Shown in pieces: positions 2,411 through 4,174 of a DNA stretch of 4,174 nt; position 1 is the first letter of the stretch, and every line of letters begins with the position of its first letter. The notes beneath the pieces were generated by a model that made no database searches, had not been told where the DNA came from, and saw only the letters and a list, made by a program, of their open reading frames with translations. The position numbers were made by a program, and so were the translations under genes. This stretch comes from a virus (taxonomy: Duplodnaviria > Heunggongvirae > Uroviricota > Caudoviricetes), in the IMG/VR virus record IMGVR_UViG_2695420624_000001; one strand, given 5' to 3'.

Positions 2411-2818
2411 ATGGATACAAGAACCCTAGGCCAGCGAGTTCTGGCGCGACGAAAAGAATTACGCTTAACACAACGAGAAGCTGCGCGCCTCGCTGGAGTT
2501 GCTCACGTCACAATTTCACAATGGGAAAGAGACGAAACCCAGCCAGTCGGAAAACGATTGTTTGCTTTAGCGGATGCTCTGAAGTGCTCACCTACATGGC
2601 TAATGTTTGGTGATGAAGACAAGGCACCAGTGCCTGCACAAGAACTTCATGTGGAAACAGAGCTAACTCCCAACCACAAAGAATTGATCGAATTATTCGA
2701 TGCTCTTCCATCTTCCGAGCAGGAAGCCTTGCTGTCTGAAATGCGCGCAAGAGTAGAAAACTTCAACAAACTCTTCGAAGAAATGCTTAAAGCGCGTAAA
2801 AATAAATCAATAAAATAA
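2411..2818 (+). CDS. dicA: HTH XRE-family repressor, DicA-like (135 aa), the cI-analogous immunity repressor of this prophage
   Basis: ORF of 135 aa. The N-terminal helix-turn-helix (LTQREAARLAGVAHVTISQWER) and the conserved blocks LFAL...CSPTW..FGDEDK and ELFDALP.SEQ...EMRARV.NFNKLFEE..KAR match DicA of E. coli Qin as recalled from memory, with the same length. It is divergent from a Cro-like gene. Stop is TAA at 2816-2818. Confidence 0.8.
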   Translation: MDTRTLGQRVLARRKELRLTQREAARLAGVAHVTISQWERDETQPVGKRLFALADALKCSPTWLMFGDEDKAPVPAQELHVETELTPNHKELIELFDALPSSEQEALLSEMRARVENFNKLFEEMLKARKNKSIK

Positions 2819-2854
2819 CATTCTTTTCAAGTGATTAGTTGCGCCCACTCTTTT

Positions 2855-2872
2855 TGTTAGACCAACCTAACA
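2855..2872. promoter_or_regulatory. Operator-like palindrome O2, TGTTAG-accaac-CTAACA (perfect; extended arms TTTGTTAG/CTAACAAA at 2853-2874)
   Basis: Same half-sites and 6-bp spacer as O1, located just upstream of the predicted -35 of the rightward ydfA-ydfB promoter. Confidence 0.5.
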
Positions 2873-2880
2873 AAAAACAC

Positions 2881-2909
2881 TTGCCTCTCATGTTAGGTTA
2901 TTCTAAATT
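2881..2909 (+). promoter_or_regulatory. Putative repressor-controlled promoter of the rightward ydfA-ydfB (dicB-type) operon
   Basis: -35 TTGCCT (2881-2886), 17-bp spacer, -10 TAAATT (2904-2909), overlapped by O3 and preceded by O2. This is analogous to the DicA-repressed dicB-operon promoter in Qin. The hexamers are only moderate matches to consensus. Confidence 0.35.
2891..2908. promoter_or_regulatory. Operator-like site O3, TGTTAG-gttatt-CTAAAT (right half-site degenerate, 4 of 6)
   Basis: Same left half-site and spacer length as O1/O2. It lies between the predicted -35 TTGCCT (2881-2886) and -10 TAAATT (2904-2909) of the rightward promoter, where a repressor operator would sit. Confidence 0.4.
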
Positions 2910-2986
2910 ACTTTCCATCAAGACACCGCACGGTGTTCTCAGCAAACAGTTCCGCTACCCCGGCGTTAAGGGGAAATGAGGTCAGC

Positions 2987-3142
2987 ATGGATACTATCGA
3001 TCTTGGCAACAACGAATCTCTGGTATGCGGCGTGTTTCCCAACCAAGACGGCACGTTCACCGCGATGACGTATACCAAAAGCAAAACGTTTAAAACCGAA
3101 GCTGGCGCGCATCGCTGGCTGGAAAGAAATTCAGGTGAGTGA
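2987..3142 (+). CDS. ydfA: YdfA-like small protein (51 aa), first gene of the dicB-type operon downstream of dicA
   Basis: The ATG at 2987-2989 is preceded by GAGG (2978-2981). The track ORF (2933..3142) starts at an upstream GTG without an SD, so the shorter form is preferred. Size (51 aa) and position immediately downstream of dicA match ydfA of Qin as recalled. Stop is TGA at 3140-3142. Confidence 0.6.
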   Translation: MDTIDLGNNESLVCGVFPNQDGTFTAMTYTKSKTFKTEAGAHRWLERNSGE

Positions 3143-3143
3143 T

Positions 3144-3272
3144 ATGGATTTCGACGCAATCATGGAAAAGGCTTACGAAGAATACTTCGAAGGCCTTGCC
3201 GAAGGCGAAGAAGCTCTCAGCTTCAGCGAATTTAAACAGGCGCTTTCCAGTTCGGCAAAAGCTAACAACTGA
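3144..3272 (+). CDS. ydfB: YdfB-like small protein (42 aa): MDFDAIMEKAYEEYFEGLAEGEEALSFSEFKQALSSSAKANN
   Basis: Not in the ORF track (too short); found by manual translation. The ATG at 3144-3146 lies 1 nt after the ydfA stop (TGAtATG), with GGTGAG upstream. It is 42 codons to TGA at 3270-3272. Size and position match ydfB of Qin as recalled. The acidic, helical-looking composition is plausible for a small protein. Confidence 0.55.
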   Translation: MDFDAIMEKAYEEYFEGLAEGEEALSFSEFKQALSSSAKANN

Positions 3273-3342
3273 GAGGTTTATGATGGAATTGAGAGTTTGT
3301 TTCAAACTCTCAATAAACCAGAGGCAGGTAAGGAGCGTTAAA

Positions 3343-3362
3343 TTATTGCTTGAAAGCAATAA
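3343..3362 (-). terminator. Hairpin (8-bp perfect stem TTATTGCT/AGCAATAA, 4-nt loop) immediately 3' of the 177-aa minus-strand gene; possible weak intrinsic terminator
   Basis: Perfect inverted repeat at 3343-3350 and 3355-3362, 2 nt beyond the TGA stop (3365-3367) of the minus-strand gene. On the minus strand it is followed by TTTAA only, so the U-tract is short, and the stem is AT-rich. Confidence 0.3.
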
Positions 3363-3364
3363 GA

Positions 3365-3898
3365 TCACTCAATCTCACCGCTATAGGCATTCCATCTGAG
3401 CATGAGGGTACGCCAGAAAATATCGTTTATGTGCAAAACACAGTATGGATTTTCGTCGGGAAGGAGTTGCCCTTCCATGGGGAGCAAAATATTAGTAGAT
3501 ACCAGTTTTTTTATATCAGAATCATTGCGTACAGCATGGATCACAGGATAGTTCCTCGATAATGCCGTAATAAGAATTTTTTTCTGACCCGCAGTCAAGG
3601 AATCGATAACTGCATTGATATGACTGATTGTTTTTTGTTCTCTTGTATTGTTCCGGTGACTTCGCCAGACCTTACGAAGAAATAAAGCTAAACGTTGGAG
3701 ATTTATAGCCAGCACAAAAGAAAAGGCAAAAACGAATACCGGGTAAATATAAGGAATGCTGATTTTGTCTTGAACATACTCCGGTACAGAATCAGGCATA
3801 AAGAGCAATATCAAAACAAAGATAATAAGCATATACATAAGGCGCTCTAAGGGTTCGTTACTGAATAACTTGCTCAACAAGCCGAATACATCAGGCAT
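3365..3898 (-). CDS. sieB: Two-transmembrane membrane protein (177 aa) in an AT-rich island; SieB-like (superinfection exclusion protein B) by architecture and synteny
   Basis: Long ORF with ATG at 3896-3898 and GAGAG upstream. Two hydrophobic segments (about residues 20-36 LMYMLIIFVLILLFMP and 49-72 IPYIYPVFVFAFSFVLAINL) precede a soluble C-terminal domain of about 100 aa. It is markedly more AT-rich than its neighbours. It is oriented opposite to the rightward early operon and points back toward the repressor, as sieB does relative to racR/kilR in Rac. The symbol is a position-and-architecture call, not a verified alignment. Confidence 0.5.
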   Translation of the reverse strand: MPDVFGLLSKLFSNEPLERLMYMLIIFVLILLFMPDSVPEYVQDKISIPYIYPVFVFAFSFVLAINLQRLALFLRKVWRSHRNNTREQKTISHINAVIDSLTAGQKKILITALSRNYPVIHAVRNDSDIKKLVSTNILLPMEGQLLPDENPYCVLHINDIFWRTLMLRWNAYSGEIE

Positions 3899-4010
3899 AT
3901 TAATAACTCTCTACTGTAAGGGTATTAAAATGCTATCACAGACTCTCGCTGTAGGGGTATAGCCGAGACCACCGAGCCTGAAGTGGTAAAAAGACAGGCA
4001 CACAACACGA

Positions 4011-4074
4011 AAGCGCACGGCGAGGCTGTTAGTTCATAAATGGTCTGTCGTTAAATTTTCGTCGACCGTGCGCT
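4011..4074. other. Long-range perfect inverted repeat AAGCGCACGG (4011-4020) / CCGTGCGCTT (4065-4074) enclosing a 44-nt AT-richer loop, within a GC-rich non-coding stretch
   Basis: Exact 10-bp reverse-complement arms seen directly. The surrounding 3940-4174 also holds small GC hairpins (CCGCG-aaatgg-CGCGG at 4090-4105; CGGGG-N9-CCCCG at 4118-4136). No ATG-initiated ORF of meaningful length on either strand. Confidence 0.3.
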
Positions 4075-4174
4075 TCCGGTTGTGGCAATCCGCGAAATGG
4101 CGCGGCGGTAAGTATGGCGGGGTTATTCCTTCCCCGTTGAGGACACCGGGTTGTCAGGTTGACCATACGCTTAA

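Follow-up and report, generated by a model that had tools for sequence, protein, structure and literature searches.

The DNA examined here, a stretch of 4,174 nt that we refer to as the window, is, judged by its genes, the immunity region of a lambdoid prophage of the Qin/mEp460 type. On the minus strand, open reading frames (ORFs) and public matches identify a replication O gene (652-1671), a ydaT-like gene (1598-2119), and a Cro/DicC-like gene, dicC (2103-2333). The plus strand carries the gene for a DicA-type repressor (dicA, 2411-2818), which corresponds to an HTH repressor in a 99.8%-identical genome, followed by ydfA (2987-3142) and ydfB (3144-3272), both annotated as such in a genome of that identity. 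In K-12, the order past ydfB is ydfC, dicF, and dicB; here, sieB (3365-3898, minus strand) occupies the ydfC slot. The order dicC-dicA-ydfA-ydfB-(sieB)-[region]-dicF-dicB, in which the region is the stretch from 3940 to 4174 that concerns us here, is shared by the 99.8%-identical Escherichia coli genome and the phages mEp460 and 640R1, and the repressor, ydfA, ydfB, the spacer, dicF, and dicB follow one another on one strand, as in a Qin-type dicBF leader. Over 3300-4174, the window is matched at 99.7 to 99.8% by nine complete E. coli genomes, one of which, AR_0017, is identical to it over 3940-4174; some part of the region, mostly 3944-4174, is matched in 4,540 of 5,426 complete E. coli genomes. 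Since sieB lies within the dicBF operon on the opposite strand, a derepressed pL-type transcript must cross all of sieB in the antisense orientation before it reaches the hairpin described below.

The region differs in composition from its surroundings, as the initial annotation had stated: its GC content is 54.0%, compared with 38.6% for the AT-rich stretch that includes sieB (3365-3939) and 45.7% for the whole window. At its left end is a junction block (3944-3997, plus strand) that is common to prophages carrying different minus-strand cargo genes. Alignment of related prophages placed the cargo-island junction at 3944, 3968, or 3989, depending on whether the comparator was the E. coli genomes, mEp460, or other phages, respectively. 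The slot, which here spans 3273-3997 and holds sieB, contains a 66-aa minus-strand gene in mEp460 (L001, 3763-4000), and in FORC_082 (L261, 1999-2500) ydfC is followed by an unrelated minus-strand gene of 151 aa, with 46 nt between the start of that gene and the 3944 block. Because different minus-strand genes occupy it, the slot between ydfB/ydfC and the hairpin can be regarded as a site of cargo exchange, with 3944-3997 as the shared right-hand junction. The earlier proposal that the region marks an insertion boundary of the cargo island consequently holds for its left end but not elsewhere. Within the junction block, a small hairpin, ACCAC/GTGGT (3968-3972/3983-3987, plus strand), is one of the short GC hairpins of the region; mEp460 has the same stem with another loop.

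To the right of the junction block, the plus strand is predicted to form a long, interrupted RNA hairpin (3998-4086), a putative RNase III stem, with a 5′ arm at 3998-4023, an apical region at 4024-4061, and a 3′ arm at 4062-4086. It contains the perfect 10-bp inverted repeat that had been noticed from the sequence, AAGCGCACGG at 4011-4020 paired with CCGTGCGCTT; however, the second arm lies at 4066-4075 rather than one base to the left (4065-4074), and the loop is therefore 45 nt and not 44 nt. The repeat grows to 13/13 nt at 92%, a second pair of arms is present at 4001-4011/4074-4084, and in the fold of 3995-4090 the repeat lies at the center of a stem of 23 pairs, interrupted by one A-C mismatch and two bulges of a single base each. 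Folding on both strands, which the initial annotation had suggested, showed that the RNA of 3995-4090 is predicted to be strongly structured: its minimum free energy is -38.3 kcal/mol (z = -4.56), and none of 200 dinucleotide shuffles was as stable. The minus strand folds about as well (z = -4.95), as an inverted repeat necessarily does. The observation of a structured region is real and goes far beyond chance.

Comparison of homologues bears on the strand. Among 44 distinct homologous versions of the hairpin, 95.4% of the cells are paired, a value that falls to 29 to 40% when the partner is slid by 1 to 3 columns. Eleven pairs vary, each on one side only, and all of the changes retain a standard pair, with G-U counted as standard; the G-U pairs that arise in this way would be C-A mismatches if read on the minus strand. 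No pair had changed on both sides in any of the 44 versions, which makes this a case of conservation and not of covariation. The predicted hairpin structure is one that rests on conservation, on one-sided changes that preserve pairing, and on energy, and the comparative data agree with its proposed location on the plus strand. With 23 pairs, the stem also has the length of largely uninterrupted duplex, about 20 bp or more, that is expected of an RNase III substrate. Within the apical loop, the motif GTCGTTAAATTT (4047-4058, plus strand) is kept while the rest of the loop varies; all 44 distinct versions, including those from N-carrying phages that do not have the downstream block discussed below, show it either intact or with single substitutions. 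The core of boxA is CUCUUUAA, with which this motif agrees at 6 of 8 positions.

The known RNA at this locus lies just beyond the window. In an Rfam search at E ≤ 1, the covariance check proposed in the initial annotation, no family matched the window, because the RNA concerned begins outside it; in the extended stretch at E ≤ 10, the search returned nothing but DicF and a subthreshold match to STnc100 downstream. DicF (RF00039) scored 76.7 bits, against a gathering threshold of 48, at 5911-5962 of the AR_0017 locus (L003), which is equivalent to window positions 4211-4262. With the 53-nt RNA of the K-12 annotation, the 5′ end of DicF falls at window-equivalent 4210, 36 nt past the window end; these positions, which are outside the window, were assigned via AR_0017, identical over 3940-4174, and not via the source contig. 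Extension of the sequence to the right, as had been advised, therefore did not reveal a protein-coding gene over 4029-4174 but did bring in a small RNA. Rfam placed DicF in the same arrangement in mEp460 and 640R1. The STnc100 matches, to a Salmonella small RNA, score 33 to 39 bits against a gathering threshold of 47; in P1 and several phages, they closely precede dicB or kil (L003, 5964-6149, in the dicF-dicB spacer; L007, 2766-2950; L005, 4342-4461). In the AR_0017 locus (L003, 6032-6363), dicB is a truncated pseudogene directly followed by a Rac-type kil, so that mosaicism extends to the division-inhibitor module that follows DicF.

In K-12, DicF is excised from the polycistronic dicBp transcript (Ragunathan et al. 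2023, PMC10448788, confirming Faubladier et al. 1990). A 190-nt DicF species is lost in an rnc mutant, builds up when RNase E is inactivated, and is stable in stationary phase, and the 53-nt species is RNase E dependent; an internal promoter was not found in the operon, and primer extension placed the RNase III cut "between positions 813 and 814" (PMC10448788). Three lines of reasoning transfer this cut to the window. The 190-nt and 53-nt species end at the same 3′ position and differ by 137 nt at the 5′ side, which puts the 5′ end of the precursor at window-equivalent 4073. If transcription starts about 7 nt past the predicted dicBp -10 element (TAAATT, 2904-2909), positions 813/814 become 4077/4078, although the 1,146-nt transcript length given in the same paper (PMC10448788) is inconsistent with the numbering origin of "813/814." Finally, the template of the primer extension ladder (PMC10448788) opens with GTCGTTAAATTTTCGTCGACCGTG, which corresponds to 4048-4071, from within the hairpin loop onward, and the mapped end must therefore lie 3′ of 4071. 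From the agreement of these three lines, we infer that RNase III would cut within the 3′ arm of the stem (4066-4084, plus strand), and RNA size together with the published design would put the 5′ end of the approximately 190-nt DicF precursor at 4073-4078.

By analogy with K-12, the inverted repeat is most likely the RNase III processing stem of the dicBF transcript, and the region as a whole is very probably the untranslated spacer of the dicBp (pL-type) operon transcript, immediately 5′ of DicF, with processing like that in K-12. In the sequence of events that we envision, transcription from the DicA-repressed promoter near 2880-2916 would proceed rightward through ydfA and ydfB, antisense through sieB, and into the region, where the inverted repeat would fold as the 23-pair stem (3998-4023/4062-4086). 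RNase III would then cleave this stem, and the cut in its 3′ arm, at about 4073-4078, would generate the 5′ end of the approximately 190-nt DicF precursor, of which a conserved block at 4090-4186 would form the body. A cut by RNase E at window-equivalent 4209/4210 would free the 53-nt DicF RNA, which would end at its own intrinsic terminator. A consensus scan for promoters and terminators returned none in 2800-4174 or in the extended stretch; the DicF terminator is missed because its loop is longer than 8 nt. The arrangement in which an RNase III stem precedes the DicF precursor body is the already known dicBF processing architecture, and we infer, again by analogy, that this prophage behaves like Qin. 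The earlier suggestion of a structured noncoding RNA or 5′ leader was essentially right, since the region combines the spacer of the dicBF operon with the 5′ part of the DicF precursor.

Neither of two other features of the sequence is a serious competitor for this interpretation. It had been stated that the region lacks an ATG-initiated ORF, which is incorrect: the open minus-strand frame holds a 45-aa ORF that starts with ATG (4029-4166), and several phage records annotate "hypothetical proteins" on this strand. That this ORF, or a longer gene entering from the right, as was also suggested, encodes a small protein nevertheless seems barely credible. Among homologous fragments, the ORF that begins at the same ATG ranges from 9 to 80 aa, owing to one-base indels and stops, and one-base indels occur even within the GGGG/CCCC hairpin (4119-4122/4132-4135); in addition, RefSeq (AR_0017) annotates no gene between sieB and the truncated dicB, and an extended frame would run antisense to DicF. 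We judge the ORF not to be a gene. The plus-strand frame is indeed open to the window edge, but it has no start codon and meets a stop 6 nt beyond the window, and no conserved ORF was found on either strand among the homologues. Given the variable minus-strand ORF and a plus-strand frame without a start, the region is considered noncoding. Similarly, the hexamer TGTTAG is present in the hairpin loop (4027-4032, plus strand), as reported initially, and it equals the half-site of the paired TGTTAG-N6-CTAACA operators on either side of the repressor gene (2344-2361 and 2855-2872). The window contains 8 TGTTAG sites, compared with 1.8 expected, an enrichment that is due to these paired operators; a further half-site lies at 2891-2896. 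It is nonetheless very improbable that the loop copy functions as a DicA operator half-site for sieB or an internal promoter, because no inverted copy is paired with it and because K-12, mEp460, and most other homologues, whose loops differ, have not kept it. The consensus scan found no promoter-like site in 2800-4174, and work on K-12 found no internal promoter (PMC10448788). The match, read as an operator half-site in the initial annotation, is in our view fortuitous.

Downstream of the hairpin lies a conserved block, the putative body of the DicF precursor, which extends from 4090 to the end of the window and on to about 4186 (plus strand). A covariance model of the block, built from 72 distinct copies, matches the window at 4075-4174 with 121.6 bits, the 3′ end of the match being cut by the window edge. 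The region is modular: hairpin, block, and small-RNA cassette are separable and are found in differing combinations. The hairpin occurs without the block in the N-carrying phages PhiR5_2 and phiSTEC1589, where a DicF-like seed and a terminator follow it directly, and the block occurs without DicF in cdtI, Ayreon, Stx2c phages, 2H10, Salmonella F1055, Actinobacillus phage pPE4, P1, and P7. In P1 and P7, about 45 nt separate its start from the C1-controlled Pban promoters upstream of it, and ban lies far downstream. When viral contigs were scanned with a sequence pattern, 73 distinct block cores were obtained; these sequences were gathered with a fixed 23-mer, and the core of the block is therefore invariant by construction. 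A scan of genome contigs with the 16-mer GCGGCGGYAAGYATGG returned nearly exclusively chance matches in GC-rich genomes and one useful locus, in E. albertii. Whatever the class of block, a single-stranded stretch of variable sequence and an intrinsic terminator come within 20 to 45 nt after it; the terminator has the form GGCGG...CCGCCCTTTTT or, in P1, GCCCA...TGGGCGTTTTTT.

A set of helices that includes one pseudoknot fits the alignment of the block. On the plus strand, the proposed helices are CCGCG/CGCGG (4090-4094/4101-4105) and GGGG/CCCC (4119-4122/4132-4135), both among the short GC hairpins of which the initial annotation had noted at least two, as well as 4107-4109 plus 4112-4117 with 4163-4171, 4148-4156 with the off-window 4176-4184, and, in lambdoid copies, 4079-4085 with 4187-4193. 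This set leaves 96.3% of the cells paired, compared with 36 to 57% when the partners are slid. Seven pairs have changed on both sides, and none of 500 shuffles reached the covariation score; most of the double changes, however, stem from the single P1/P7 lineage. Examples are GTATGG/CCATAC, which becomes GCATGG/CCATGC in P1, and GTTGTCA/TGACAAC, which becomes GTTGCCA/TGGCAAC in P1 and P7. RNAalifold gave a partly different, nested fold for the same alignment, and the folding energy of the block alone is not significant relative to shuffles (z = -1.68; z = 0.03 for the P1 version). Strands of the CACAAC/GTTGTG type recur at 3999-4006, 4079-4086, 4148-4156, and off-window 4176-4193, and the GTTGTGG at the base of the 3′ arm of the hairpin could instead pair with CTGCAAC/CCACAAC past the block; given these repeats, a cut by RNase III might make this strand change partners, with the new 5′ end tucked in as a result.

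No Rfam family matches the block (window, E ≤ 1; extended stretch, E ≤ 10), and no description of it was found in the published literature covered; it appears to be an undescribed RNA motif of lambdoid and P1-like phages. Its lambdoid carriers include Qin, mEp460, cdtI, Stx2c, and Salmonella F1055. The most economical account is that the block has a putative role as the structured 5′ body of a long precursor that is common to a family of DicF-like small RNAs. Each phage group has its own single-stranded "seed" and GGCGG...CCGCCCTTTTT-type terminator, either after the block or directly after the hairpin (L006, ~3120-3200; L007, ~2620-2700; L008, ~2625-2740; L005, ~3090-3150; L132, 2590-2650), and the sequences of these differing seeds suggest a family of DicF-like small RNAs in which target specificity may have been swapped. 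The Rfam DicF model gives only 29.5 bits on the PhiR5_2 version. In pPE4 (L007), CCCCGCCACAACAACCCATGTTGATTACCTTTTGGCGGGTATCCG occurs twice in tandem about 100 nt past the block, and the small-RNA cassette looks duplicated; this phage otherwise resembles an E. coli lambdoid phage of the DicA/Kil/YdaT type, despite its stated Actinobacillus host. In the rightward early region of the cdtI phage, adjoining matches to the C4 antisense RNA (68.4 bits) and isrK (60 bits) were also observed (L006, 540-728, minus strand). It is possible that the block acts as a scaffold for the maturation or stability of DicF-like small RNAs or that it controls read-through of the cassette terminator. A broader view, to which we give somewhat less than an even chance, holds that 4090-4186 functions independently as an RNA module, possibly with a pseudoknot, that lambdoid phages and P1/P7-like plasmid prophages have in common.

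Two other explanations of the block have to be weighed against its role in a precursor. The constant position of the block, always in an early operon, on the transcribed strand and 20 to 45 nt before an intrinsic terminator, would suit a cis-acting processive antiterminator RNA, similar to put of HK022, in phages that lack N: polymerase would read past the terminator of DicF, and past those that come later, to reach dicB, exo, xis, and int. The location in P1 and P7, about 45 nt past the C1-controlled Pban with ban far downstream, fits this idea; furthermore, tblastn found a lambda- or P22-type N homologue in none of 136 block-carrying loci, and the two phages that have the hairpin and small RNA without the block do carry N. 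N proteins are too diverse, however, for the tblastn result to have much weight, and the Rac-like phage 666R9 has the terminator cassette but neither block nor N, so the anticorrelation between the block and N is not strict. Moreover, at E ≤ 10 the block's covariance model has no match in the putL and putR loci of HK022 (L010 and L011), direct inspection of putL and putR revealed a two-stem-loop layout unlike that of the block, and there is a single copy of the block per phage. We consider a put-like antiterminator, and the read-through into dicB, exo, xis, and int that it would allow, to be unlikely. An explanation at the level of DNA, according to which the block, and perhaps the hairpin too, is kept as a recombination linker between exchangeable modules and has no RNA function, is scarcely better placed. 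It would account for the striking modularity of hairpin, block, and cassette, for the several nested homology breakpoints that flank the region, and for the insignificant folding energy of the block alone; but it does not predict seven pairs that remain paired after changes on both sides, conserved G-U pairs that would become C-A on the opposite strand, a constant orientation relative to transcription, or the stable 190-nt RNA that contains the block in K-12 (PMC10448788). Resemblances to other elements were set aside. The RfaH ops element has the 12-nt consensus GGCGGTAGnnTG, including T6 and G8; the sequence at 4104-4116, GGCGGTAAGTATG, has an A at position 8 and is one base too long for this consensus, and GGCGGTA (4104-4110) resembles the site, but P7-type copies have a C at position 6. 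By comparison with the literature, the small RNAs Pas and AgvB are unrelated to the region.

DicF blocks the translation of ftsZ and rewires sugar metabolism and, in enterohemorrhagic E. coli (EHEC), virulence. The amount of DicF depends on how the operon transcript is cut, and the positions assigned to the putative stem and precursor body indicate that the processing architecture of K-12 has been retained here despite the swap of the cargo gene. The comparison also suggests that DicF is one of several phage small RNAs assembled from an exchangeable hairpin, block, and seed-plus-terminator cassette, a view that, if true, would be useful for the annotation of prophage small RNAs. As a candidate for a new RNA motif, the conserved block is both defined and testable.

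The closest counterpart of the region is the dicBF operon of Qin in K-12. The two are nearly identical over 4000-4174, alignment with the K-12 ydfC-dicF spacer showing only scattered substitutions, and they share the position between ydf genes and dicF, the same hairpin, DicF and its terminator directly downstream, and control by a DicA-type repressor. Unlike in K-12, a minus-strand sieB replaces ydfC, so that the transcript is antisense to sieB, the apical loop of the hairpin differs and contains a TGTTAG that is absent from K-12, and dicB is truncated and followed by kil in AR_0017. Classical RNase III stems, such as those of the lambda N leader and sib, the T7 early RNA, and the 16S and 23S rRNAs, provide a more general likeness, in that about two helical turns of interrupted double-stranded RNA lie within a polycistronic transcript and cleavage separates functional RNAs; in contrast to those stems, the product here would be the 5′ end of a small-RNA precursor. 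Likewise, the "dicF-like region" of P1 (NC_005856, 68791-68892), downstream of Pban, covers part of the block, which is common to both at 77.6% identity (82% for P7) and is followed in the same orientation by a single-stranded stretch and an intrinsic terminator. The P1 region has neither the RNase III hairpin nor the DicF seed, and it comes directly after a C1-controlled promoter, whereas the Qin-type region lies 1.2 kb into its operon. With putL and putR of HK022, finally, the block shares the status of a structured RNA in a lambdoid early operon and the 9-mer GCGCGGCGG; however, put RNAs are about 70 nt long, with two stem-loops and two copies, whereas the block is about 100 nt long, has another helix layout, and is present in one copy.
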